The notes under the pieces: generated by a model
Told to the model about the DNA's origin: nothing
Databases searched by the model: none
Seen by the model: the letters and a program-made list of their open reading frames with translations, nothing else
Shown here: piece after piece, positions 11,751 to 54,800 of the stretch
Layout: each line of letters begins with the position of its first letter
Numbering within the stretch: the first letter of the stretch is position 1
Assembly (NCBI GenBank): GCA_965216785.1
Contig: OZ244197.1
Span: 2,592,001 to 2,656,000 of the forward strand
DNA length: 64,000 bases
Origin: Thermodesulfobacteriota bacterium
GTDB lineage: Bacteria > Desulfobacterota_D > UBA1144 > Nemesobacterales > UBA2774
Reading direction: 5' to 3'
Translations under genes and position numbers: made by a program

Positions 11751-12611
11751 TTGAGATTGAACATACAACAGGCAGATAAAGATTACAGAAGAGTAGAGAG
11801 CGCTCTTAAGTATTTACAGACAAACTTCCAGAATAAGCCGAGCCTTAAAGAGATAGCCGATAGGGCTTCTCTCAGCGAATACCACTTCCAGCGTATATTC
11901 ACACGGTGGGCGGGGATTAGCCCCGAGCGCTTTATGAAATACCTTACGAAGGAAACCGCGAAAAAAACTCTTGCCGAGTCTAAGAGCATCCTTGACGCCG
12001 CATACAAGAGCAAGCTCAGCAGCCAGGGACGTCTTTACGACCTATTCGTCACTACAGAGGCCGTAACCCCTGGGGAATTCAAATCCTCCGGAAAGGGTCT
12101 CGTAATCAACTACGGTGTCCATCCAAGCCCATTCGGCCGGTGTTTTATAGCATTGACTGAGCGCGGTATCTGCTTTCTCGGGTTTATAGGTAAAGATGAG
12201 CTCGAAGAGGTTCTATCGGAATTTAAACGCAAATGGAAAAACGCTCTAATAACGAAAGACCAAAAAGCCTCGGCCCGTGTCGTAGAGTCAATATTTGATA
12301 GTAACGCGGGTACCCAGAAGGAGCCGTTTAAGCTTTTACTCCGAGGAACTAATTTTCAGATCAAGGTCTGGGAAGCTCTTTTGAAAATCCCTCCCGGATG
12401 CATAGTGTCTTACGAGGGTTTAGCGCATCGCCTGGGCAAGCCCAATTCGGCAAGGGCTGTTGCGGGCGCTGTAGCTTCAAACCCACTGGCCTATTTAATC
12501 CCGTGCCACCGCGTGATCAGGAAAATGGGTGTGATAAGCGATTACCGCTGGGGGGCCGAGAGAAAGATGGCCATGCTCGCGCGGGAATCATCAATATTAA
12601 AAAACCCTTAG
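11751..12611 (+). CDS. AraC-HTH / O6-methylguanine-DNA methyltransferase fusion (Ada-like, no N-terminal Zn domain)
   Basis: LSEYHFQRIF HTH, GTNFQIKVW, IPCHRV active site; TTG start with GGAGG. Confidence 0.92.
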   Translation: MRLNIQQADKDYRRVESALKYLQTNFQNKPSLKEIADRASLSEYHFQRIFTRWAGISPERFMKYLTKETAKKTLAESKSILDAAYKSKLSSQGRLYDLFVTTEAVTPGEFKSSGKGLVINYGVHPSPFGRCFIALTERGICFLGFIGKDELEEVLSEFKRKWKNALITKDQKASARVVESIFDSNAGTQKEPFKLLLRGTNFQIKVWEALLKIPPGCIVSYEGLAHRLGKPNSARAVAGAVASNPLAYLIPCHRVIRKMGVISDYRWGAERKMAMLARESSILKNP

Positions 12612-17955: not shown

Positions 17956-19062
17956 TTAAAGCAGTAGGGTGAAAATCAAAATTATTCCAAACGCAAAAAG
18001 ATATATATATCTGGCCCACTTCTCTATCATCTTCGCACGCTCTTCGTTCCCTTCAGAGGCGATTTTACTGGTTACGACGGCGGTACCCAGAGCCAAAAAG
18101 ACCAAAATAGTCGAGAAGAGCACGAACTTATCGATCCTGGTAAAGTAAGAAACCTTTGGCAGCTGGTAACTCAGACTGAATCTATATGCGATCAGCGTGA
18201 AAACAGTTGCCGTGGAAAGCCCTACCTGCGGGCCTATTGCAGTCGGGGGAATCCAGAATACCGCCCATGCCATAAGTACTATCAGGCAAAGGGGTATAAG
18301 CACGTTTAGCACGTAATAATTTCTGTCTCTTTGTGCAGACATCCTGAAATCAATTCGAGCAAAATTTCGTACCTCACCTGTGCCTTGAGACTTAACTGCT
18401 TCGCTCGATGTAACCGCATCGAGGAGTCCGACATGCCAACCCTCGATGGAGAAATGATCTCTCGAGCCCGAGAACTTTTTATCCTGTACAAAAACCATAT
18501 GCTCAGCGTCCGGACCGTACGCGGCAAGGATAAAATGAAGTACCTGACTATCAAAGGGAAAGTCTGTGAAATCCAGATCCGAGGAAAGCGTGCCTATGTA
18601 ACGCTGCTTATAATTAACTTTGCCCTCACTGTCCACTCTCACTACTTTTGGAAGCAGTTTTTCCCCTTTACTTCTGTTCACATCAATAAAGGACGGGTGC
18701 CAGATATCCTGGAGTTTTATCGTGCATCTCTCAAGAGACCTACCAATCGACTTCTCCGATAAACGCGGATCATTCCAAGTGGAATTAAACACTATGTCCG
18801 CCGTAAAGGTTTGCTCCACATCGTCTATCTCTTTAACGTCAATGAGGAAAAAACCCATATATACCTTGGTCTTTTCACCCTCGGCCCCTGGTCTTATTGC
18901 CTGGGTATTTTCAGGGACTGTACAGTCCATAGTACTCATGGTTGTATCGTTAGTTTGAGCAAAAGCCGCAATATACGTACACAAGATTAAGAGCAGCGCG
19001 GCAAGCCCAAATCGCATAACTAATCGAGCTCTATAGATCGAGTTGTAGTTTTGTACATTCAT
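17956..19062 (-). CDS. Prokaryotic pentameric ligand-gated ion channel (GLIC/ELIC/sTeLIC-like)
   Basis: Signal peptide, W.DPRL, IWHP, Pro-loop DFPFDSQ, pre-M1 R..NYY, M1 proline (LIP), LPKVSY M2-M3 loop, four TM helices. Alternative start at 19017. Confidence 0.93.
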   Translation of the reverse strand: MNVQNYNSIYRARLVMRFGLAALLLILCTYIAAFAQTNDTTMSTMDCTVPENTQAIRPGAEGEKTKVYMGFFLIDVKEIDDVEQTFTADIVFNSTWNDPRLSEKSIGRSLERCTIKLQDIWHPSFIDVNRSKGEKLLPKVVRVDSEGKVNYKQRYIGTLSSDLDFTDFPFDSQVLHFILAAYGPDAEHMVFVQDKKFSGSRDHFSIEGWHVGLLDAVTSSEAVKSQGTGEVRNFARIDFRMSAQRDRNYYVLNVLIPLCLIVLMAWAVFWIPPTAIGPQVGLSTATVFTLIAYRFSLSYQLPKVSYFTRIDKFVLFSTILVFLALGTAVVTSKIASEGNEERAKMIEKWARYIYLFAFGIILIFTLLL

Positions 19063-19240
19063 TTTAGGCTATGTAAGTAAAAAGGTATCACCAATATTGT
19101 ATATCAAATATCCGCCGTCTTAACAATACACTTAGAAACTGTATTTTTTTGTGACCGTACTTCTCATTTGTATAGTCACCTATTACAAACCAGATAAATG
19201 CTCTTTCATTAATCAATATATCGCAACAGTAGACTCTGCG

Positions 19241-19257
19241 TCATCAAAATTCGGCAA
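19241..19257 (-). promoter_or_regulatory. 17-bp box copy 1 (TTGCCGAATTTTGATGA), upstream of the pLGIC gene
   Basis: 15/17 match to the other three copies; oriented towards the pLGIC start. Confidence 0.7.
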
Positions 19258-19434
19258 ACTATAATTCTGAAGAAATAAAATATCCTCGGTATATATCGAC
19301 AGCGATTTAATGTCTTATCAACAAAATCTATAGCACATAAAGATATATGTTGCACTTGTACAATTTACACCATTTTGCTATCATAACTTGTAGAAATTAC
19401 GCGCTATTAACAATCAAAGACTATAAAGTACTAC

Positions 19435-19451
19435 TTGCCGATTTTTGATGT
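19435..19451 (+). promoter_or_regulatory. 17-bp box copy 2 (TTGCCGATTTTTGATGT), upstream of the patatin gene
   Basis: Identical to copies 3 and 4; ends 128 nt before ATG 19580. Confidence 0.8.
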
Positions 19452-19579
19452 GGTTGCATAGCTCAAGAAGGTATCGTCATTATAAACTTTTTATCAAATA
19501 CTAAAAGCTATCTTAAAGCTAAGTGAAACTAGGCGTTACTCTGCTTTTTGCTTAAATAGTTTCACTAACGAGTACAAAT

Positions 19580-20767
19580 ATGAAAATAAGAGCTACGTTG
19601 ATCCTATTGAGCGTTTTTTTCTTCATCGGTTGTGCGAATATTAAAAGAAACCCTCTTCCTGAAAATAGGTCGTTGGATGCTGTTGTATTAAATACCAAAG
19701 GCATTCGCACGTACGCCGGGGAATTAGACCCTGAATTTCAGGAAGACCTTAAGTTATCCGTAATACAAGAGCTTGAAGAGCACGGTAAATATCCTGATTA
19801 TAAGGTTGATAACAGCATACTACTTTTATCGGGCGGCGGCGCCCACGGCTCATTCGGCGCGGGTTTTTTAAACGGCTGGACCAGCACCGGCACCAGGCCT
19901 GAATTTAAAATAGTTACGGGTATAAGCACGGGAGCGCTCATAGCCCCGGTTGCGTTTGTAGGAAGTCAGTATGATGACGTATTAAAAGAATTGTACACAG
20001 GGGTATCGACACAAGACGTTGCAAATGTGAGAGGAATCGCGACTCTCTGGAACGATTCCCTGGCCGACCCGGCCCCGCTTATGGAGATACTTGAGACTTA
20101 CATAAACAAATCATTCATCGATAAAGTAGCTCAGGCCCACAATGAAGGCAGGAGGCTATATTTAGGAACTACCAATCTGGACGCCCAAAGGCTGGTTATC
20201 TGGAACATGGGTTTACTTGCTAATATTGATGATCCCAGAGTCCCCGAGCTATTCCGAAAGATAATGCTTGCGTCCTCTTCTATACCTATCGTTTTCCCAC
20301 CCGTAATGGTGGATGTGGAATTAGACGGGCTCGAATTTGATGAGATGCACGTTGACGGAGGGGTCATAACCCAAGTCTTTTTTCACCTTGCCATAGTGGA
20401 TATTAAAGAGATAAGAAATGAATTAATGGACGGTTCCATCCCTGTAGAAAAAGGAAAAATATTTCTAATCATGAACGGGACCATTTTGCCGATTTCCGAC
20501 CAAATTAACAGAAAAATACTAGATATTACTGAACGCTCCCTATCTACTATGATTAAATCCTCTGCTATAAACGACCTGAGGAGAATTTACTATTTGGCCA
20601 AAAAGGAAGATCTGGACTTTAACTACGTAGGAATACCTGAGGGCTTTGAATTTACGGCGACAGAACCATTTGATCGTTTAGAGATGATAGAGCTATATAA
20701 TCTGGGATACGGAATCGGCTCCTCAAGCGATAGATGGCAGCATGAAGTTCCCGGAGATGTACAATAA
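19580..20767 (+). CDS. Patatin-like phospholipase, lipoprotein
   Basis: SGGGAHG oxyanion motif, GISTG nucleophile, ASSSIP, DGG; lipobox FIGC. Confidence 0.93.
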   Translation: MKIRATLILLSVFFFIGCANIKRNPLPENRSLDAVVLNTKGIRTYAGELDPEFQEDLKLSVIQELEEHGKYPDYKVDNSILLLSGGGAHGSFGAGFLNGWTSTGTRPEFKIVTGISTGALIAPVAFVGSQYDDVLKELYTGVSTQDVANVRGIATLWNDSLADPAPLMEILETYINKSFIDKVAQAHNEGRRLYLGTTNLDAQRLVIWNMGLLANIDDPRVPELFRKIMLASSSIPIVFPPVMVDVELDGLEFDEMHVDGGVITQVFFHLAIVDIKEIRNELMDGSIPVEKGKIFLIMNGTILPISDQINRKILDITERSLSTMIKSSAINDLRRIYYLAKKEDLDFNYVGIPEGFEFTATEPFDRLEMIELYNLGYGIGSSSDRWQHEVPGDVQ

Positions 20768-20848
20768 TTATGAGAATTCAAGAAAATGATGGTGGCTTTT
20801 ACAGTTTTTGAAACTTCTGTCATACAAATAAAAGAGGAGGTAGTAGAT

Positions 20849-21550
20849 ATGAGATCCAATATATTTATGTTTTCTATTTTTTTGGTTTTAGTAGCTTTAT
20901 TTTCGTTCGGGTGCGCCAAAACTCATGAGAGTGACAAGCCATTGCCAAAAGGCTTCATTTCAGATTTATCACAGCTTGAGGAAGACCCTGAAGGCAAGGT
21001 TGCACTCGTTTATGTCAACGAGAACATTGATTTTTCTTCTTACGACAAGGTATGGCTAGAAACTATCACGATTTATGTTTTTGAAGGATCAAAACTGGCC
21101 GATTTGCCTGAAGAAAAGCTTAACAATCTTGTGGCATATATGAAAGAAGCTTTGGAAAGAGAGCTGGGCAAGAATAATCAAATAGTTGAACAAGCAGGCC
21201 CTGGTGTCGCGCAAGTCAGATTCGCGCTGACTGAAGTTTCGGGCTCAAATGCTCTTATGGATACGGTAACGACTGTAGCGCCGCCCGCAAGGGCATTCAG
21301 TGAGTTAAAAAAACTTGTAACCGGAAAACACGCAGCAGTCGGGCAGGCGGCATTTGAAGGCGAAGCGCTGGATTCAGTTACCGGAGAAAGAATCGCGGCC
21401 GCCATGGGAGTAAGATCAGGCGGTAAGGCAGTTAAGACAAACTTTGATGAGTATCGAGACGTTAAAGCTGCAGTCGACGCTTGGGCAGCCAACATGAGTG
21501 AAAGATTTGAGAGATTGAAACAGAGAAGCGCCGGAAACGGACAGTCTTAA
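20849..21550 (+). CDS. DUF3313-like lipoprotein
   Basis: GAGGAGG RBS, lipobox SFGC, GFISDLSQL, YDKV, E.EALDSVTGERIAA. Confidence 0.8.
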   Translation: MRSNIFMFSIFLVLVALFSFGCAKTHESDKPLPKGFISDLSQLEEDPEGKVALVYVNENIDFSSYDKVWLETITIYVFEGSKLADLPEEKLNNLVAYMKEALERELGKNNQIVEQAGPGVAQVRFALTEVSGSNALMDTVTTVAPPARAFSELKKLVTGKHAAVGQAAFEGEALDSVTGERIAAAMGVRSGGKAVKTNFDEYRDVKAAVDAWAANMSERFERLKQRSAGNGQS

Positions 21551-21680
21551 GAAAACATTGCTCTTTTTAATTATTCGCACGTTTTAGGCTGCTTATCACT
21601 TGCGGCGACTTATGCTTTCTGAGTAGATGGGTTATCCGGCCTTATAGTCTTAGTTACTGAAGACGGAATAACCCGTTTAC

Positions 21681-22199
21681 TCAATTGATAAACATCCTCA
21701 TCAACACGAGTGTTAGAGCGATCAGTACAAACCCGACACCTCCGAGAATGCGCAGTATCAAGTTTTCGGTTCTATATTTTAAAATTGTGAATCCATAGTA
21801 AAAGAGTAGCGAGATAATAATGACTATTGAAACCTTGTAAGCTGCCTTTATTCCTAACAGACCTATCTTGGACAGAGCAAATACTATTATTATAGGGAAG
21901 AGCTCTACAGCCACATAGATAAGCTCCTTCAAGTAGGAGATTCTTTCCTCATGCTCCAAAGCGCGTTTTTCTACGATAGATTTACTAACCATATTTGAGA
22001 ATATCCTGAGGGAATTTATACATAGCACCGTCCAAGAAATAACTATTACGCTCTCGATCGGGCCTGGCGGATTTTCCTGCAGAACTACCAGAAGAACTAA
22101 AATGATTACCGATGCCGTAACCGCGCTTGACACATATGCCTGTGAAAGAATTATAGAAAGGATACGCGTTTTAATAATCGATAAACGGTAGGATATCAT
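21681..22199 (-). CDS. Hypothetical membrane protein (about 5 TM)
   Basis: Hydrophobic helices; lies downstream of box copy 3. Confidence 0.7.
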   Translation of the reverse strand: MISYRLSIIKTRILSIILSQAYVSSAVTASVIILVLLVVLQENPPGPIESVIVISWTVLCINSLRIFSNMVSKSIVEKRALEHEERISYLKELIYVAVELFPIIIVFALSKIGLLGIKAAYKVSIVIIISLLFYYGFTILKYRTENLILRILGGVGFVLIALTLVLMRMFIN

Positions 22200-22273
22200 T
22201 ATCTATGTCCTGCCTAATTCAGAAGCCACAAAAGGGAATTTAATTTAGATTAATGCTTCTAAATAGTCACAAT

Positions 22274-22290
22274 ACATCAAAAATCGGCAA
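22274..22290 (-). promoter_or_regulatory. 17-bp box copy 3 (TTGCCGATTTTTGATGT on the minus strand)
   Basis: Identical copy 30 nt after the AraC stop codon and 74 nt before start 22199. Confidence 0.8.
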
Positions 22291-22320
22291 TCTTGTTGAG
22301 TACAAACGTGTCAGATGGAA

Positions 22321-23283
22321 TTACATCTGCCTTGTTGTTTCAGATGGAAGCTCTCCGAACAGTGACCTGTAGTCTTTGGCGAATTGCCCCAAGTGCCAGA
22401 ATCCCCACTTGTTGGCAATATCCGAAATATTCTTTTCGTCCGGGGGAGTTTTTCTTAAATCTCTCCGCACTTGATTTAACCTTATCATTTTAACAAATGA
22501 TTTGGGAGAAATACCGAAATACTCATTGAATGCGTATCGGAGTGTACGCTCACTCACAAAAGCCGCCCTGCAAAGATCCCTGACAGTAATATCGTTGTAC
22601 CTATAAGCTTCCAGATAGTCTCGTACCCTTCTAATAGTCATATATCTCTGTCTTGGAGAAGGCTTTTTCTCTTTTGTATCCTTACTCGATAAAGCTAGAA
22701 TGATAGCACGAGGAATTTCGTATTCTATTTCATATAGTACTTGCGCTTCACTCATGTTAGGAGCATTCTGCTTTAAATCCCCAATCACATTGTCTACGGT
22801 GCATTGGAGTTTTACAATAGAATCCGGATTGCAGTTAACAACTTCTGCTTGTTTTAATATATCCGTATCGTTACCCTGACCAAGTGTATCGATAACATCC
22901 AAAAGTAATTCCTCTTTATATGAAAGTGTCATCACATCAAAACCCGGTGGAGATTGAGAATCAAGCTCACAGTTTTCGGGGAATACCATAATATTATTTT
23001 TTTGGGTTTCGTGTCCGTGCCAGATAATATTAGGAGATTGGCTTGATAATATACCAAAAGTCCTAAGCCCGAGAGGAGAATGGCCCCTCTGGTCGAGCTT
23101 GCGGCCGAGTTTCGCTTGATTTATTTGCCAGCTTTGAGACCTAACTTGCAGTAAATTAGCCCGAAATTCACCCGAGTCAATCTGGCGAAAATCTAAATCC
23201 CAGGGTTTTGTATTCTGAGCAAAATGATCAAAGTCAGTAAATTGTTCATTTATAACAACGTATCCGCCTAACTCTGCGTCCAT
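22321..23283 (-). CDS. AraC-family transcriptional regulator, EutR-like
   Basis: C-terminal VSERTLRYAF...GISP...RLNQVRRDL and WGFWHLGQFAKDYRSLFGELPSET; N-terminal WDLDFRQI..G.F; ATG 23283 with GAGGGG. Confidence 0.93.
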   Translation of the reverse strand: MDAELGGYVVINEQFTDFDHFAQNTKPWDLDFRQIDSGEFRANLLQVRSQSWQINQAKLGRKLDQRGHSPLGLRTFGILSSQSPNIIWHGHETQKNNIMVFPENCELDSQSPPGFDVMTLSYKEELLLDVIDTLGQGNDTDILKQAEVVNCNPDSIVKLQCTVDNVIGDLKQNAPNMSEAQVLYEIEYEIPRAIILALSSKDTKEKKPSPRQRYMTIRRVRDYLEAYRYNDITVRDLCRAAFVSERTLRYAFNEYFGISPKSFVKMIRLNQVRRDLRKTPPDEKNISDIANKWGFWHLGQFAKDYRSLFGELPSETTRQM

Positions 23284-23685
23284 AGATCCCCTCAACACTA
23301 ATCAAACTTCTTCTTTATTATTATACAATAATATGAAAACTTTGCTGTTTGTTGATGATGTTAGTCCGGGGCTTTCGGAAATATTTTATATTCAGTAAAA
23401 ATGGTTAAGCGTATTATCTATGTACTCTATCCCAATTCAGAGCAAAGAGGCGGCTCATTCCTATTTAATGAATTATACTGCTCAGGTTACCGGGTGGCCT
23501 TTCGTATGAAAACGAGACCTTATACAAGTTTTTCTCATTCTGAGTTAAGGTGCGTTAAGGATATGAACTGAATTCAACTCAACATACCGTATTTACTACT
23601 TTAAATTTACTGAATTCTTCATCCAAACCGATTCCCATCGTTAATCGTTATTGATCATTATCCCTCAATCATGTTATTGTTAAAA

Positions 23686-23702
23686 TTGCCGATTTTTGAT
23701 GT
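23686..23702 (+). promoter_or_regulatory. 17-bp box copy 4 (TTGCCGATTTTTGATGT), upstream of the MBL hydrolase operon
   Basis: Identical copy ending 99 nt before ATG 23802. Confidence 0.8.
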
Positions 23703-23801
23703 AGTTAGTGTAAACCATATTGTAGATTTATTCATTACTTACAATACTATGGTTTAAATACTAATCATCAGACTTTTTCAAAACTGTCATTGGGGGGAAT
23801 T

Positions 23802-25238
23802 ATGAGAAAATTATTTGTATTAGCATTGTTTCTATTGGTTGGGGGAACGATGCTTTATGTTGCAAACGCGCAGGATCAGGCACAGAAACAAAAAGGTGTT
23901 ACCAAAGGCTCTGTAGTTGAGGTAGTCGAGGACTTTGAGGGAGCCGAATTTGAGCAGGATCAGAAAGCTATCGAAAACACCATGATGGGCGGAGTGCCCG
24001 CGGGGCGTTGGAAGGAAGGGCTTTTATTCGAAGGCATAGAACCGCAGCCTTGGCTTAAAAGCGCGGCAAACTGGATGCCGGGAACAGAGAAAGTACAGCC
24101 TGAAGAGATGAGGATTACGTTCATGGGCACTGCTCCTATGCTGAGACCGGGACAGATGAACACATCTATCTATGTCGAGCTGGGAAACGGCGACAGTTTC
24201 ATATTCGATATGGGTGAAGGCGCTGTATCTAATTATATGGCATCCGGCATACCCATAAACAAGTTAAACGACATATTCCTAACTCACCTTCACGTTGACC
24301 ATTATGGTTCTATTCCATGGGTATATGCTTTCGGCGCATGGGCCGGACGCTGGCACGAGCCGCTCAGGATTACCGGGCCTTCTGGCAGAACCGAGAAAGA
24401 CGGCGTTGCCTATATGATAGAGGGAATGAAGATGATGATGCACTGGCACCGTGAGGCGTTCAGTGTATTCCCGACAGCCTGGGAAATCGAAGTAAACGAG
24501 TTTGATTTCGCGGACGCTGGTGGAACCGCTTACGACAAAAACGGTGTAAAGGTAATACACTGGCCCGCCTCACACGCAAAAGACGGGGCCTCAGGTTACA
24601 GGCTAGATTGGAATGGTCTTAGTTTTTGCTACACAGGTGATACGCGCCCTAATACACTGGACATTAAATACTGTAAGGGTGTGGATGTTATGATTTCAGA
24701 AACTCAGCCCGAGGTCGTTGCCATAAGCTCGGGTGTTCAGGGTGTCCCACCTTTTGTCGGACGCTACACTATTGACACTCACCACACCCCATCATACGCG
24801 GCGGGTTATATTTTCAACCAGGTAAAGCCCCGTATGGCGATGACCACTCACATGCCCTATGACCCTTATATAAATGCCGAGACAATCGCTGAGGTCAGGG
24901 AACACTGGAAGGGACCATTCCATTTCGGCGCCCCTGATATGGTTGTAGTGAACGTAACTAAGGATCAAATTTGGGTAAGAGACGGAGTAATTCCTGACTA
25001 TCCCAATGTCAGGGCTCCAAGCGCAAAGGCCTCTGTTGATAAGTACGGCGGCCTGATCGTACCGGTTCCACCGTTTCAACGTGAAGACCTACAGGCACAA
25101 TCAATCCGCGATGCTGAGATTGACCCAAAAAAGTACTACCCCAAGGGTTATCATCCCGAGCTCATGGAGCACTGGCCTGTGGACAAACCGCTCTTTATCC
25201 CGGAAGACAAGATTCCTCCGAGCATGAAAGGAGAGTAA
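23802..25238 (+). CDS. Secreted MBL-fold metallohydrolase (RNase Z/AtsA-like, resembles the GntH-like family)
   Basis: Signal peptide (ANA-Q), FMGT, FDMGEG, THLHVDH, YTGDT, HHT, MTTH. Confidence 0.85.
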   Translation: MRKLFVLALFLLVGGTMLYVANAQDQAQKQKGVTKGSVVEVVEDFEGAEFEQDQKAIENTMMGGVPAGRWKEGLLFEGIEPQPWLKSAANWMPGTEKVQPEEMRITFMGTAPMLRPGQMNTSIYVELGNGDSFIFDMGEGAVSNYMASGIPINKLNDIFLTHLHVDHYGSIPWVYAFGAWAGRWHEPLRITGPSGRTEKDGVAYMIEGMKMMMHWHREAFSVFPTAWEIEVNEFDFADAGGTAYDKNGVKVIHWPASHAKDGASGYRLDWNGLSFCYTGDTRPNTLDIKYCKGVDVMISETQPEVVAISSGVQGVPPFVGRYTIDTHHTPSYAAGYIFNQVKPRMAMTTHMPYDPYINAETIAEVREHWKGPFHFGAPDMVVVNVTKDQIWVRDGVIPDYPNVRAPSAKASVDKYGGLIVPVPPFQREDLQAQSIRDAEIDPKKYYPKGYHPELMEHWPVDKPLFIPEDKIPPSMKGE

Positions 25239-25314: not shown

Positions 25315-25353
25315 CAATTGTGATGTACTATGACAAAACAAAGGAGGGTACAA

Positions 25354-25932
25354 ATGTTTAAAATTAAAAGGATAAATGTTATACCGTTATTATTTTTACT
25401 TCTAACAACACTTGCAGTTTCTGCTGACGACAGCAAGATAGAAAAAGAGCAGAATAAAGTAAGGGAGAAATCAACTGAAACGCTGGCAAAGCTCTATCAG
25501 GCCGAGCCGAGAGCAAAAAACGCTGTAGAAAGCGCTTATGGATACGCCACATTTAGTAATTTTGGGATGAAGATACTCGTAGCTGGCGGAGGCAAAGGCC
25601 AGGGATTGGCTGTGAATAATAAAACAGGTGCCGAGACATTTATGAAAATGATTGAAGTTCAGGCGGGGTTAGGCATGGGAATAAAGAAATTCTTAGTCGT
25701 ATTCGTATTTGGAAACGAAAGCGCATTTAATGATTTTGTAAACTCTGGCTGGGAGTTCGGCGGACAGACGACGGCCGCGGCCAAATATGACGACGAGGGC
25801 GGCGCTCTTGCCGGAGCTGTTAGCGTTTCCCCTGGTGTTTGGGTATATCAGATGACCGAGGACGGGCTTGCGCTTGAGCTTACGATGAAAGGCACCAAGT
25901 ACATGAAAGATGACAAGCTAAACCAGAATTAG
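25354..25932 (+). CDS. YSC84/SYLF lipid-binding domain protein, exported
   Basis: AGGAGG RBS, signal peptide, AYGYATF, GGGKGQG, QAGLGMG, GWEFGGQ, GTKY. Confidence 0.85.
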   Translation: MFKIKRINVIPLLFLLLTTLAVSADDSKIEKEQNKVREKSTETLAKLYQAEPRAKNAVESAYGYATFSNFGMKILVAGGGKGQGLAVNNKTGAETFMKMIEVQAGLGMGIKKFLVVFVFGNESAFNDFVNSGWEFGGQTTAAAKYDDEGGALAGAVSVSPGVWVYQMTEDGLALELTMKGTKYMKDDKLNQN

Positions 25933-25960
25933 CTCTATTTGAAAGGAGGGGTAGTGAGAG

Positions 25961-26761
25961 ATGAAGAGGATTTTTTGTTCAGTACTGCTTTGTACTATTT
26001 TAGCTCTTAATCAAAACGTTTCAGCAGATCAAGAAGAAGACCTGGCAAAACAGGCTCAAAACCCAATTGCCGATCTGATTAGCTTACCGTTTCAAAACGA
26101 TATCAACTTTAACCTTGGGCCACACAACCGCACCCAGAATATCTTAAACATTCAGCCGGTTATCCCCTTTAACCTAAGTGAAAAATGGAACCTAATTACG
26201 AGGACTATCGCCCCTTTGATATATCAGCCGGACGTTACCAGAAGCAGCGGCGGCGAGTTCGGGCTCGGAGATATAAACACAACCCTTTTTCTATCCCCTG
26301 CCAAGGAATCAACGGTTACATGGGGCTTAGGACCCATAATCTCTTTTCCCACAGCCACCGATAAATCCCTCGGCACGGATAAGTGGTCAGCCGGCCCTTC
26401 CCTTGTTCTGTTAACTACACCGGGTCCATGGGTGCTGGGTTTTCTTACAAGCAACATCTGGTCATTCGCTGGAGACAGCGACAGAGCTGACGTGAATCAG
26501 TTTCTGCTTCAATATTTTATTAACTACAATTTCCAGGGTGGCTGGTACCTATCTTCAACCCCTATCAATACCGCGAACTGGGAAGCAGATGACGGCAACA
26601 GGTGGACAATCCCCATAGGGGGAGGCCCGGGAAAGGTCTTCAGGGTTGGCAAGCTACCAGTGAATTTTAGGACACAGGTCTATTACAATGTTGAGAAACC
26701 TGATCTGGGACCGGAATGGACGCTCAGGCTGCAGCTACAGTTCCTATTCCCTAAAAAATAG
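25961..26761 (+). CDS. Outer-membrane beta-barrel transporter-like protein
   Basis: LAKQAQNPIADLISLPFQ, QPVIPF, GLGDI, PTATD..LG..KW..GP, C-terminal LQFLFP. Confidence 0.8.
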   Translation: MKRIFCSVLLCTILALNQNVSADQEEDLAKQAQNPIADLISLPFQNDINFNLGPHNRTQNILNIQPVIPFNLSEKWNLITRTIAPLIYQPDVTRSSGGEFGLGDINTTLFLSPAKESTVTWGLGPIISFPTATDKSLGTDKWSAGPSLVLLTTPGPWVLGFLTSNIWSFAGDSDRADVNQFLLQYFINYNFQGGWYLSSTPINTANWEADDGNRWTIPIGGGPGKVFRVGKLPVNFRTQVYYNVEKPDLGPEWTLRLQLQFLFPKK

Positions 26762-26830
26762 ATTAATATGAGGAAAAGGCAGTTCCCCAATAACAGAAAA
26801 ACTTTTACGAAACATTGGAGGTAAGGAGAG

Positions 26831-27883
26831 ATGGAGATGAGAAAAATATGTGCGGACAAAGTTATAAGCCATAAAACTTGGCGTGCTGCCTTACAGGGTT
26901 TATTTTTTCTGTTCATTATGGCAAGTTTATTACCGTTCTCAGCGCTTGCTGAAGAGACCGGCCAAACAGGCAGTACATTCCTTGAGGACAAGCTCAACAC
27001 CGCACGCGAATATGAGCTCGCGGGCAGTTATGCGTTTTCAGACAACGCAGTAGCGCAGGCTGACGAAGCGGAATTCAACGAAGAGTCCAGGGGAACCAAG
27101 CCCTATCTGAGCGGCTCGGGAGGATACTACGGGGACAAAGACTGGCAGGCGTTCGTCGCTCTTTACATGTGGTTTGTGGGGATGAACGGCGAGACCGGTA
27201 AGGGCAATAGGGTCGCCGATGTTGACGTCGGTTTCGGGGATATATGGGATAACCTCGATTTTGGTTTTCAGGCGCACATCGAAGTATGGTACAAGAAGGT
27301 CATTTTCTTTATTGACCCCTTATACATGAACCTCTCGTCTAAAAACAAGAACACTCGTGTAGTGAGCTCTCTTCGCTCCGATCTAGATCTTGAAATGTTT
27401 ATGATGGATATGGCGGCAGGCTACAGAGTGGCGGAAGTTCCACTCGGAAGCGGCACGCAATCAAACAATTTTAAAACTTGGCCTTCGCTTGCTGTGGACG
27501 TCTACGGCGGAGGAAGACTGGTTAGCCTCGATTCAAAACTCGATCTTACTCTTGAGACCCCAATCGGCACACGTGGACAAAGGATAAAACTGAGTGAGAC
27601 ATGGTTTGATTTCATTGTGGGCACAAGACTCATGTTTGATTTCACAGAGAACCTTCTACTTAGCGTAAAGTCAGATATAGGTGGTTTCGGTCTTGGATTC
27701 TCATCCGACATCGACTGGAACTTCGCGGCAAACCTCGGATACCAGCTCCCGTGGTGGGGTATAACGCCTTACGTCGGTTATAGGGTATTATATTTAGACT
27801 ATAAAGACGGAAGCGGCGACAACAAATTCGTTTATAAAGTATGGAATACAGGCCCTCAAATTGGTCTAGGAGTTAGGTTCTAG
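26831..27883 (+). CDS. Outer-membrane beta-barrel protein
   Basis: Signal peptide, Y.W..G..G, W.D.IVG, DIGGFG.G, GYRVLYLDY, C-terminal GP.IG.GVRF (terminal Phe). Confidence 0.82.
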   Translation: MEMRKICADKVISHKTWRAALQGLFFLFIMASLLPFSALAEETGQTGSTFLEDKLNTAREYELAGSYAFSDNAVAQADEAEFNEESRGTKPYLSGSGGYYGDKDWQAFVALYMWFVGMNGETGKGNRVADVDVGFGDIWDNLDFGFQAHIEVWYKKVIFFIDPLYMNLSSKNKNTRVVSSLRSDLDLEMFMMDMAAGYRVAEVPLGSGTQSNNFKTWPSLAVDVYGGGRLVSLDSKLDLTLETPIGTRGQRIKLSETWFDFIVGTRLMFDFTENLLLSVKSDIGGFGLGFSSDIDWNFAANLGYQLPWWGITPYVGYRVLYLDYKDGSGDNKFVYKVWNTGPQIGLGVRF

Positions 27884-27894
27884 AGGTCGAGGAT

Positions 27895-29481
27895 ATGTTC
27901 TCTTTAACTAAAAGAGCTAATCTTGCGTTTTCGAGTTTAATAAAGACAAAGTCCGCCCAGGACTTAACAACGCTATTCATACTGATCCTGCTTATAATCT
28001 CCACAGCGGGCTATTCATGCGGACCCAAAAAGAGCGCGCAAGAAGAGATTTCAGCCGAGCCTGAAAACACGAAATATAAGCTCGGTAAAAAAGGAATAAG
28101 AGAGAAGCAGAAGGAAGAACAATCCGATAGTCAAAAAGTGGATGAGGTAGAAGCCGATACAGTCGTCTATGAAGAGTTTCCCGTATTGAATGCAAGTGAA
28201 ATTCTGGATGAGGATTTACTTAAGAGCGATCACCACCGGGTTAACGAAGAGGTCGTAAGCGACTGCGTATGGAACTCATATCAGATAGACAGTGACTTCG
28301 GCGAGTTTCAGGCCTATAATACGAACATCCTTAAAACCCGCGTTAATGAAATACAAGCCATAGCAAAGCTTCAACAGACCTCAGGCGCGGAAGCCATGGC
28401 CTCCGGGGCGATCGACTCTGTCATTAATCCCTTTACATCTGCGATAAATATCGCTACAAACCCTGTCGGCACCGCTGTGGGAATTCCGGGAGGGATCGTC
28501 ACCTTCTTTAAGAAAATCTATTACACCGGCGAAAAAACGGTAAAGATTGGCAGTCAAACCGTGCAGAATGTCGGCGGTGCTGTTACAGGCTCTGGGGATG
28601 ATGAAGACGGAGATTCATATTCAGGTCTTACAGGCGACGCGAGCTATCTCATTGACTGGTATTTGGGCGTTAGCGGAGGTGAGAGACGGGTGGCAAAAGG
28701 GCTTGGAGTGGACCCCTACACCTCAAACCCCGTGCTCGCGGCAGAGCTTAAGAGAGTAGCCAAGTACGAGAGAATCGGAAAACTCGGGTTCGGGTTTGCC
28801 GACATACCCTCGGTGCCGGGCATGGGTTATGTAAAAGACGTCAATCACTACGTTTGGGATAAAGACCCAAGAGAGCTAAGGGACTTCAATAAAAAGAGCC
28901 TTGTAGAAATGGGGGTCGAGGAAGAGCTTGTTGAGAATTTTTTGAGCTCACCTTATTACAGCCCGACTTTTCAGACCGCGATTGTTTTTTCACTCAAGGA
29001 AATGGATGGGGTAAAAAACAGAGAAGAAATAATAGAAGACGCCGTAGTGGCCTGGACTATACCGCAAGCCCAGCTATATACCAATATGGTGGTACTGATG
29101 GCCTGGTTCCACAACACGCAAAGCCCGTTCACTGAGATCATTAACCACTCTGATATAACGTCCGGTCTCACAGAAGACAATAGGATAATCACCATTTTAC
29201 CGGTCGATTATTTGTGCTGGTCAGAGCAGGTCTCGGAAGTCGCGAACTTTCATAATGACGTGCTATCGGATATCGAAGCCGAGCAAAAAGAGTTCTGGTT
29301 CGCTGGCACTGTGTCCGATAGAGCCAAGAGCGAAATAACGGATCTTGGCTGGATCGTATACGACGAAGTCGCGGTAGAGAATATAGACTCTAAATATGAC
29401 GATAAAAATAAAGCGACCAAAGAAATAAATACCGAAGTGTACAGATCTTTTGAGACAGAAGAAGTGGATGTACAGAATTAG
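27895..29481 (+). CDS. Hypothetical exported protein / lipoprotein
   Basis: 528-aa ORF 11 nt after the previous gene; hydrophobic stretch ending GYSC; acidic; start uncertain. Confidence 0.7.
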   Translation: MFSLTKRANLAFSSLIKTKSAQDLTTLFILILLIISTAGYSCGPKKSAQEEISAEPENTKYKLGKKGIREKQKEEQSDSQKVDEVEADTVVYEEFPVLNASEILDEDLLKSDHHRVNEEVVSDCVWNSYQIDSDFGEFQAYNTNILKTRVNEIQAIAKLQQTSGAEAMASGAIDSVINPFTSAINIATNPVGTAVGIPGGIVTFFKKIYYTGEKTVKIGSQTVQNVGGAVTGSGDDEDGDSYSGLTGDASYLIDWYLGVSGGERRVAKGLGVDPYTSNPVLAAELKRVAKYERIGKLGFGFADIPSVPGMGYVKDVNHYVWDKDPRELRDFNKKSLVEMGVEEELVENFLSSPYYSPTFQTAIVFSLKEMDGVKNREEIIEDAVVAWTIPQAQLYTNMVVLMAWFHNTQSPFTEIINHSDITSGLTEDNRIITILPVDYLCWSEQVSEVANFHNDVLSDIEAEQKEFWFAGTVSDRAKSEITDLGWIVYDEVAVENIDSKYDDKNKATKEINTEVYRSFETEEVDVQN

Positions 29482-51800: not shown

Positions 51801-54800
51801 ACATTACTCGCTTTTCTATAGAAAAAAACAGAATCACCCTCACCGCGCTCGTCGTAGTAGTGCTTGCGGGGTTCCTATCATATTTCAATATGTCCCGCTC
51901 AGAAGACCCGGGCTTCATCATACGTACCGCCCAGGTTACTACGTACTGGGGCGGCGCAAGCCCCGAGCGCGTGGAGCAGCTGGTCACGGACAAGCTTGAG
52001 AAAGTAATACAGGAAATGCCCGAGATTGACTTTATCAACAGCACCTCAAAAACCGGCATATCCGTAATAAATGTAAACGTTAAAGAGAGTTACACGGACA
52101 TGAGGCCCATCTGGGACAGTCTCAGAAGAAAGGTCGACAGGGCCCGCACAGAGCTTCCGGATGACGTAGAAGGCCCTTTTGTAAATGACGAGTTCGGAGA
52201 CGTATTCGGGATCGTGATTACCCTCATCGGCGAAGGCTTCAGCTACAGAGAGCTCAAGGACATTGCCGACGAGGTCCGTGATGAGCTCTTATTCATACCC
52301 GATGTCGCAAAGGTCGAGATTTACGGGGCCCAGGAAGAGCGGATATTCGTCGAATACAGTAACGCCCAGCTCTCTGAGCTCGGCATATCCCCTAGCCAGC
52401 TAAGGGACATACTCACTTCAAGGAATATCATAGTGCCCGGCGGAGATATAGACACGGAGTACGAGAAGATTGTACTCGAACCCTCTGGAAATTTCTTTTC
52501 ATTTGACGAAATAAAAACCGCGAAAATCCAGCTGCCCGATATGAATGAGGTCATATACCTCCAGGATATAGCGGATATCTCAAGGGGTTATATAGACCCT
52601 CCGGAGCAGATGATGAGGTGCTCTGGAGAGAGATGTCTTGGGCTAGCGGTATCCATGCGCGAGGGCGGCAATATAATAGAGATGGGCACTCAGGTAAAGG
52701 AAGTTATCGACAGGGTCCAGGGCTTCTACCCGATCGGAATCGAGTTTGATTACGTCCAGTTCCAACCCGAGCCCGTGGCTAAAAAGGTTAATGACTTTAC
52801 CAGCAACCTGCTGCAGGCTGTAGCCGTTGTAGCGCTCGTAATGCTATTTACGCTCGGGCTTCGAACCGGCTTGATCGTGGCTTGCCTTATTCCCGCCGCC
52901 ATGTTGATGTCACTCATGATAATGGGTTTTCTGGATATCGGACTTGACCAGATCTCTCTTGCAGCACTCATTATTGCGCTCGGTATGCTTGTTGATAACG
53001 GCATCGTGATGTCTGAATCGATTATGGTACAGATGTCGGGAGGTAAATCCGTAAAGGACGCCGCCATAGACTCCGCCAAAGAGTTAAGACTGCCGCTTCT
53101 GATTGCGTCCCTGACAACCGCGGCAGCGTTTCTTCCCATTTATCTTGCTGAATCAGCTGTGGGCGAATATACGGCGTCACTATTCAAAGTAGTCTCCATA
53201 ACGCTGCTTAGCTCATGGATACTCTCAATTACAGTAATCCCGCTTCTTTGTGTGAAGTTTTTAAGAGTAAAACCCGAGAGCGTGAAAGACAGGTTCGGAT
53301 CAAACTTCTACACTCTGTACAGAAATTCTCTGATAAGAGGACTCAAAAGCCCCTATATCTCCATATGTATTATTGCCGTCATCTTCGCGCTCTCGATCTA
53401 CGGCTTCCGTTTTGTACCGTCGATATTTTTTCCCCCGAATGACAGACCTACTTTTACAATAGACCTGAATTTACCCACGGGAACCCCGATTAAACGCACC
53501 GAAGCCGTAACGATTGAGATTGAAAAATTTATAGAGAAAAACTTTGAGGTAAACGAAGACAGAAAAGAGGGTATTACCAATTGGGCCGCATTCGTCGGCC
53601 AGGGAGCGCCCAGGTTCATACTGTCATATGGTCCCGAGCCGCCGAGTCCTGATTACGCTTTTATTATTGTTAATACATCGTCAAGGGAAATTATCGACAG
53701 TATCATCCCCGAGATAGAAAAATTCTGCCTGGACAACTTTCCAGATCTCAAACCCACTATCAGGCCGCTTGATCTCGGCCCCCCGGCCTGGCCTCCTGTA
53801 GAGGTACGCATATCGGGACGCGACACTGACAAGCTCTTTGATATAGTGAGCGAAGTGAAAGCAAAGCTCGCGTCGATTCAGGGCACCAAGCTTATTGACG
53901 ACGATTGGGGAGCCAGATCCAAGAAGTTTTTAGTGAACATAAACCAGCCGCGCGCTCTGAGGGCGGGCGTCACAAGCCAGGACATAGCTGTGTCGCTTCA
54001 AACATATCTTAGCGGCATGGACACTACAGAGTTCCGGGAGGAGGACAAGCTTATACCCATCACCATGCGCTCAGTGGCTTCTGACCGTGACAACATCGGC
54101 AAGCTCGAGAGCTTAAACGTATTCGTACAGAGCTCAGGTAAATCACTCCCGCTTAAGCAGGTAGCCGATATCGAAGTCGCCTGGCAGCCGGGGAAAATCG
54201 TAAGACGAGACAGACTAAGAACCGTGACCGTGGAATCTCTGCTCGACCCGGGCTATACCGCCAGTGAGATTAACGCCCAGCTCAGACCATGGCTGGAAAA
54301 GGAGCAAAAGTCTTGGGGACTTGGATATTACTGGGAGCTCGGCGGAGAAACCGAAGAAGCGGATAAGGGGAACGCGTCTATCGCCGCGAAGCTTCCAATA
54401 GCCGCTATGATCATTCTTCTCCTCCTGGTCGGCCAGTTTAACTCACTCCGAAAACCCGCCATAATACTAATAACCATACCTCTGGGCATTATCGGAGTGG
54501 TAATCGGACTGCTCGTAACCAATTTATATTTTGGCTTCATGACGCTCCTGGGGATAATTTCACTCTCGGGGATTGTAATAAATAACGCGATTGTACTCCT
54601 GGACAGGATAGATATAGAGATTAATGAGAACGGGCTCGAGCCCGCAAGAGCCGTAGTCGTTTCCGCCGTAAGACGGTTCCGTCCGATAATACTTACTACA
54701 GTAACGACTATTTCAGGCCTCCTTCCACTCTGGATAGGCGGTGGTCCCATGTGGGAGCCTATGGCGGTCGCAATTATTTTCGGTCTGCTCTTCGCAACCA

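Follow-up and report, generated by a model that had tools for sequence, protein, structure and literature searches.

Regulators of the AraC/XylS family carry two recognition helices that read the two sub-sites of a 15-17 bp element beside the -35 region, and an N-terminal domain that binds the effector (PMC5481539, PMC5821096). XylS sites pair a box A (TGCA) with a box B (GGTA) at a distance of 6 bp and come as two direct repeats, and the protein dimerises (PMC5481539); the consensus sites of BenR read TGCA-N6-GGNTA (PMC6449761). EutR is described as binding just upstream of -35 and as autoinduced through P1 (PMC5821096), and for SlfR of Psychrobacter pP62BP1, an AraC regulator divergent from sulfatase genes, XylS-like sites and autoregulation have been proposed (PMC3346939). 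Here we analyse a 17-bp box that recurs around the gene of an AraC/XylS-family protein in a 64-kb window (the whole stretch of DNA that was analysed) from the genome of a Thermodesulfobacteriota bacterium, hereafter G000. The box is real and lies at a fixed distance, 20-21 nt, ahead of promoter-like sites; the genes behind these sites encode envelope proteins and hydrolases that are predicted to be exported. Sequence comparison indicates that it is probably the binding site of the adjacent AraC/XylS protein, and that sigma-70 promoters would be activated by this protein from one site only, at about -49 to -33.

The closest described systems each share part of this arrangement. EutR of E. coli and Salmonella belongs to the same family, and the 17-mer before eutS, which we infer to be the footprinted EutR site, resembles the first box of the window and has the same 20-nt spacing. 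In contrast, EutR forms a separate clade and its site has another 3' half, whereas the targets here are hydrolase and envelope genes and, in the regulator's subfamily, a box lies antisense over the regulator's own promoter. XylS and BenR sites at Pm have the same TGC-N7-GNT frame, with the proximal site ending 20 nt before the -10; the differences are the direct repeats 21 bp apart, both of which were seen in our Pm control, where the present box is single, and an alignment of XylS with the window regulator that is limited to the C-terminal 104 residues (37%). SlfR is a functional analogue, likened by description: its proposed site is a direct-repeat pair, TTGA-N6-AGGACA, and its targets are SdsA-type alkylsulfatase and fatty-alcohol genes (PMC3346939). 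No description of this regulon was found in the literature searched, which left most subscription papers outside its reach, and the motif string was unmatched there. The regulon is apparently undescribed and its mechanism conventional; a specialist would not be surprised by it, because it is textbook AraC/XylS activation.

Box copies and promoter geometry

The initial annotation had placed four copies of the box 74-178 nt upstream of genes and in gene orientation, and all four are where it had put them: exact copies at 19435-19451 (+), 22274-22290 (-) and 23686-23702 (+) (boxes 2, 3 and 4), and a copy with two mismatches at 19241-19257 (-) (box 1). The measured distances to the ATG are 178, 128, 74 and 99 nt for boxes 1-4, all in the orientation of the gene. 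At up to three mismatches the window holds five matches against 0.30 expected, a number reached by 0 of 100 shuffles; the fifth, at 52043 (-), has three mismatches, lies in coding sequence and is without a -10 at +20/21. The whole 3.12-Mb genome has only three exact, one one-mismatch and one two-mismatch copies. The one-mismatch copy, at G000:C1:2053403 (-), is 558 kb from the window and 67 nt upstream of a gene for a 439-aa hydrolase of the metallo-beta-lactamase (MBL) fold, a paralog 36% identical to the 478-aa hydrolase of the window. Because this copy sits before a paralogous hydrolase gene so far off, what had been called a local regulon is more than local, its four window copies notwithstanding. 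Likewise, the four units said to be boxed are so, but the regulator, described as the exception, has a decayed copy with four mismatches at 23342-23358 (+).

A TAnnnT hexamer follows all five intact boxes: TATATT (19215..19220, -) past box 1, TATCGT (19472..19477, +) past box 2, TAGATT (23723..23728, +) past box 4 and TAAGAT past the remote copy, each after 20 nt, and TAATCT (22247..22252, -) past box 3 after 21 nt. Against a background of 0.031 per intergenic position, finding TAnnnT at one offset in four of five sites has P ~1.4e-4, or 5e-4 with the local, AT-rich background of 0.044, both corrected for 30 offsets. A genome-wide position weight matrix (PWM) scan of G000 gave 22 weaker matches besides the five sites, none of them with a TAnnnT -10; the PWM scores of the five sites themselves are circular, but the -10 test is not. 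With the -10 hexamer taken at -12..-7, the box spans about -49..-33, because the hexamer starts 20-21 nt downstream. This sequence geometry, an asymmetric site of about 17 bp next to -35 and in promoter orientation, recurs at two control promoters: the proximal XylS site at Pm is followed by TAGGCT after 20 nt, with the distal repeat 21 bp upstream, and the 17-mer before E. coli eutS, whose first 13 bases are those of box 1 (14/17 overall), is followed by CACGAT after 20 nt. Just one of the four box promoters in the window reaches the score of a -35/-10 pair, so that most of them look activator-dependent; a generic promoter scan (27 sites against 24.6 expected) was uninformative. No second half-site was found from -70 to +43, the best mean being -13 bits over 42 distant sites and -9 bits over 11 own sites.

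Recurrence of the box with the regulator

In G002, a congener (same genus) of G000, the regulator is 83% identical and all five sites are kept. Boxes 1-4 match there in 15, 17, 16 and 17 of 17 bases, and over the five sites, compared ungapped, the box is conserved in 82/85 bases as against 57/100 in the spacer, 56/100 upstream and 41/70 downstream. TAnnnT stands at +20 in all five orthologous G002 sites despite letter changes: the hexamers of boxes 1 and 4 are identical, that of box 2 is TATCAT and that of box 3 lies at 20 nt. G002 has eight box matches at up to two mismatches, namely the five orthologous sites, one with a -10 near the regulator and two without a -10 at +20. The sixth site is the counterpart of window 23342-23358 and is intact there, with TAATGT at +20, whereas in G000 both box and -10 have decayed.

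Among 120 genomes of the class, G000 has five boxes, G002 six, three genomes one each and 115 none; at least five boxes thus occur in only two, both with a close regulator ortholog. Regulator homologs at E<1e-20 are present in 13 of the 120, close only in G002 and 25-34% identical in the others. Two of the three single-box genomes have a box without a -10, and in G098 (locus L141, G098:C257) a box precedes the ortholog of the remote hydrolase, with TAGTAT at +21. In the unrelated genus of G120, one of 121 genomes (G120) has the regulator at E<1e-60, with six boxes, and one other genome has a single box. At the G120 locus (L048, G120:C1:318219-328757) and at L166, the 5' end of the regulator gene with both boxes is present three times, one of them inverted and truncated, for six boxes in total.

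An unseeded search among distant relatives led to nearly the same element. The distant set comprised 20 loci from genomes together with the 80 best of 584 matches in metagenomes, with regulators mostly 30-45% identical; the search took 96 of these loci, excluding that of G002 (L029), the near-duplicate L035 and the partial L040 and L047, and 70 of the 96 gave 181 usable upstream regions. Expectation-maximisation from 759 random seeds yielded TTGCGGaTTTTTGATGT, one base off the window's box, at 44 sites in 39 loci, with a log-likelihood of 356 against 68 on shuffled regions (120 seeds). Over 39 distinct sites with sufficient sequence downstream, nAnnnT stands at +20 in 28 and TAnnnT in 15, where other offsets give 0-11 and 0-5, and the downstream element is a sigma-70-type tATAAT. 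The motif discovery at related loci that the initial annotation had proposed as a check thus returned a near-identical box at the same spacing.

A near-full match to the regulator and 250 nt of sequence ahead of it were available at 76 loci. At 65 of these a 17-bit site stands near the regulator (a partly circular count); by position, 64 sites are upstream antisense, none upstream sense and seven downstream sense. The reversed-sequence control gave 0, and 3-124 nt separate the antisense box from the point where the regulator match begins. When 70 of these loci, cleanly translated, were grouped into 50%-identity clusters and each cluster was held out in turn, a score of 14 bits or more was reached on the antisense strand by 30 of 34 clusters, 20 of which have nAnnnT at +20, and on the sense (control) strand by none of the 34. 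Among the named hosts with a box are Alpha-, Delta- and Gammaproteobacteria, a planctomycete and a Rhodothermota bin, but not Sulfurovum, whose locus is boxless. When a PWM built from distant sites only is run over the whole G000 genome, the five sites occupy ranks 1-4 and 6; over 23 kb of E. coli the eutS site scores highest, as does a site before eutB at the Vibrio pelagius eut locus. A search of the distant loci for the literal start TTGCC(G) gave no clear signal, because most relatives carry G at position 5, a matter that the unseeded search resolved. The combination of box and -10 was found in no viral contig.

In a different genus of the family, a distant AraC paralog (28-30%) comes with a variant of the box, TTGCAAAATTCGGATAG, that fits the XylS/BenR consensus TGCA-N6-GGNTA. 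This variant lies antisense upstream of the regulator, with a -10-type hexamer at about +20 (L003, L005, L134, L138; G004:C1:195966-197549, G013, G022, G096), and has three exact copies in G004.

Proposed activation by the adjacent regulator and its alternatives

The regulator (320 aa; 22321..23283, -) ends in the double helix-turn-helix (HTH) domain HTH_18 (PF12833, 76.8 bits against a cut-off of 33.6). Its AF2 model (pLDDT 82.8) is all-beta over residues 8-122, the N-terminal beta-barrel effector domain; the top Foldseek matches of the model are CuxR, ToxT, Rns and the N-domains of AraC and RhaR, and this fold search gave no clue to the effector. G000 encodes two HTH_18 proteins, of which this is the sole non-Ada one; the other is an Ada-type AraC/methyltransferase gene at window 11751-12611 (+). 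The assignment of the box to the regulator is supported because no other non-Ada HTH_18 protein was found in the genome, box and regulator co-occur, the motif emerges unseeded near relatives of the protein, and the spacing is that of Pm and eutS. The initial annotation, which took the box as the operator of this regulator, is supported in the assignment by comparative evidence; activation site beside -35 is a better description than operator.

The two C-terminal HTH motifs would read the TGC and GAT halves of the box, one regulator unit to each single box, as suggested by the lack of a second half-site from -70 to +43. A small molecule in the N-terminal beta-barrel would switch activation on, and the bound regulator would then contact sigma-70 polymerase and recruit it to promoters whose -35 is poor. 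The antisense box that relatives usually have directly ahead of the regulator gene would serve the divergent target and at the same time occlude the regulator's promoter, amounting to autorepression, an arrangement that would have decayed in G000.

Several observations weigh against activation by this protein. Eleven of the 76 distant loci are without a 17-bit box and four of the 34 clusters fail; the Ruegeria locus reaches just 12.8 bits and L167 has no box. The held-out test retains some circularity, because its training sites were picked by a PWM that had been trained on part of that set, and the agreement of G000 with G002 counts as one event, because the two genomes are kin. The V. pelagius eutB site is without TAnnnT at +20/21, and G098 has a box but its regulator was not found in an assembly that is 83% complete.

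The same protein could instead act on the box mainly as a repressor overlapping the -35 of its targets. A site abutting -35 could block polymerase, and we ourselves take the antisense copy beside the regulator gene to be repressive. However, a spacing fixed at 20 nt across phyla fits contact with polymerase, while a steric block needs none; the spacing is moreover that of the activated Pm and eutS promoters, and with one window box promoter in four scoring as a -35/-10 pair, most look activator-dependent. We regard repression as the main role as very unlikely. Equally improbable, to our mind, is that the box is read by another transcription factor or by an alternative sigma factor, as a sigma-54 -12 element (TTGC) or an extracytoplasmic function (ECF) -35. 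The box does begin with TTGC, and the boxed G098 with no regulator found would fit; but on the box strand none of the 5 sites has GG at -24, the opposite strand offers no GC partner for GG-N10-GC, the downstream element is of the sigma-70 type, and the motif tracks the AraC gene across phyla.

Still less probable is that the regulator is a true EutR and the box an ethanolamine- or cobalamin-responsive site. The EutR model NF007522 is the best NCBIfam match of the regulator, some databases label its relatives 'ethanolamine operon activator', and box 1 agrees with the E. coli eutS site as noted above. Yet the match, 113.9 bits, is far below the cut-off of 319, identity to EutR is 25% although the second-HTH signature is shared, and a quick IQ-TREE tree (82 rows) unites the EutR proteins of E. 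coli and V. pelagius (SH-aLRT 97) and leaves the window protein outside their group. EutB (PF06751) was found in neither G000 nor G002 (92% and 82% complete), with a positive E. coli control. On sequence grounds the regulator is therefore an AraC/XylS family member, EutR/XylS-like but not EutR; of the earlier label 'EutR-like', the family resemblance stands and the identity with EutR does not. An amine or phospho-ethanolamine-type effector may apply. A last reading would have the copies left over from a dispersed repeat, or from the duplication of promoter regions, with no regulator involved. Three copies are indeed identical, and paralogs of the targets are numerous. This reading is nevertheless hardly credible and largely refuted: over 40 nt on either side, the five copies are 30% and 33% identical against 29% expected, and the box is strand-specific, is much better conserved between genomes than the sequence around it, and is met again in other phyla.

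Predicted targets, possible function and neighbouring features

The 478-aa hydrolase matches, among solved structures, PNGM-1 (E 3e-57), the MBL-fold arylsulfatase 8gyg (E 9e-13, weaker than PNGM-1's) and then RNase Z; it passes the GntH model NF041257 (528 bits against a cut-off of 333) and carries HLHVDH, in keeping with the HxHxDH pattern of sulfatase family S4 (AtsA), for which membership is defined by about 30% identity over the length to AtsA, HxHxDH and sulfatase activity. S4 arylsulfatases are described as adjoining RNase Z (PMC5066984). A signal-like N-terminal segment sets the window protein apart from a cytoplasmic tRNase. In the distant loci, 41 of the 44 boxed genes were scanned, leaving out three near-duplicates: 18 encode PF00884 sulfatases, seven MBL-fold proteins, three outer-membrane barrels, one an efflux porin, one a glycine zipper protein, and 11 match no family, of which three match the window's 350-aa barrel. 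In L077 a single box heads sulfatase, sulfatase and a prokaryotic pentameric ligand-gated ion channel (pLGIC), all on one strand. Homologs of window genes in 99 distant loci, mostly short (only 39 reach 5 kb), are MBL (16), pLGIC (2), DUF3313 (2) and patatin (1).

The core targets are exported ester hydrolases, namely sulfatases of the formylglycine family in relatives and PNGM-1-like MBL hydrolases here, together with envelope proteins. From them, ester scavenging is inferred: when switched on, the module might serve to scavenge an external sulfate or phosphate ester, a proposal we hold only tentatively and the weakest step of our reading. With the same reserve, the effector could be such an ester or its product. 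Other findings speak against this function, and against its sulfur side in particular. The available text on PNGM-1 presents it as a beta-lactamase/tRNase Z and makes no statement on sulfatase activity (PMC6882493). In G000 the box precedes none of the six PF00884 sulfatases and only two of eight MBL paralogs; four other pLGICs and two patatins are likewise boxless, the best score among all these being 11.1 bits, and some may be inner operon genes. Six pLGIC homologs (55-60%) from genomes lacking the regulator have no box within 600 nt, the best reaching 11.3 bits.

We considered the pLGIC as a core member and rejected this, with its six boxless homologs and its presence in two of 99 distant loci; because those homologs come from regulator-less relatives, it is rather a lineage-specific recruit. 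In total, G000 encodes five pLGICs, three patatins and eight MBL-fold paralogs. A patatin gene and a pLGIC gene lie side by side a second time, at G000 1885098-1887451, without a box, and a second cluster (G000:C1:2047420-2053335) holds three PNGM-1-like hydrolases and paralogs of the window's 266-aa and 350-aa outer-membrane genes, with a box only at the 439-aa hydrolase.

Box, promoter geometry and targets are now predictable for a widespread regulator subfamily whose members are labelled ethanolamine activators or left unnamed in databases. Knowing the effector would give a lead to what orphan sulfatases and PNGM-1-like hydrolases act on, and perhaps to the signal for one bacterial ligand-gated channel. 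On the most far-reaching reading, which we consider less likely than not, it would name the natural substrate of these enzymes, PNGM-1-like proteins would be recast as exported scavenging hydrolases, and the bacterial pLGIC would gain a physiological cue and a candidate ligand. A box reporter would make effector identification a simple screen, and cultured hosts among the relatives include Bradyrhizobium sp. Ai1a-2 and Thalassoglobus neptunius KOR42.

The predicted targets in the window are as follows. Box 1 precedes the pLGIC gene (368 aa; 17956..19062, -; PF02931 and PF02932). Box 2 precedes a patatin-like lipoprotein gene (395 aa; 19580..20767, +; PF01734, lipobox at C18), which is likely co-transcribed with a DUF3313 gene (233 aa; 20849..21550, +; PF11769) on the same strand after a short gap. 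Box 3, 30 nt behind the stop of the regulator gene, precedes a gene for a 172-aa membrane protein (21681..22199, -) with four hydrophobic segments, which is kept in G002 and has no Pfam or NCBIfam match. Box 4 precedes the signal-peptide-bearing hydrolase (PNGM-1/GntH/RNase Z-like; 23802..25238, +), with which four downstream genes (25330..29481, +; YSC84/SYLF, 266-aa and 350-aa probable outer-membrane proteins, and a 528-aa protein), in an order kept in G002, are likely co-transcribed. A hydrophobic segment lies within the first 45 residues of eight of nine predicted regulon proteins; in the remaining one the start looks signal-like on visual inspection. The regulator's own promoter has a predicted -10, TATAAT (23320..23325, -), with the same letters in G002; the decayed box, which has no -10 at +20, overlaps its predicted -35.

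Three further stretches stand out beside these genes. About 40 nt ahead of the start of the pLGIC gene is a weaker site resembling the box (19101-19117, -; L029:11581, +), which scores 17.5 bits here and 22.5 in G002; it has no -10 at +20 and would fall in the predicted 5' leader. Upstream of box 2, a block at about 19354-19388 (+) is conserved with G002 (CACTTGTACA ... TTTGCTATCAT) and has the score of a -35/extended -10 pair; it may be another promoter of the patatin gene. Finally, the spacer between regulator and hydrolase (23430-23660) has no open reading frame of 80 aa and is about 80% conserved with G002 over 500 nt; the intact G002 box promoter points into it, and a small RNA or short peptide encoded there is possible.

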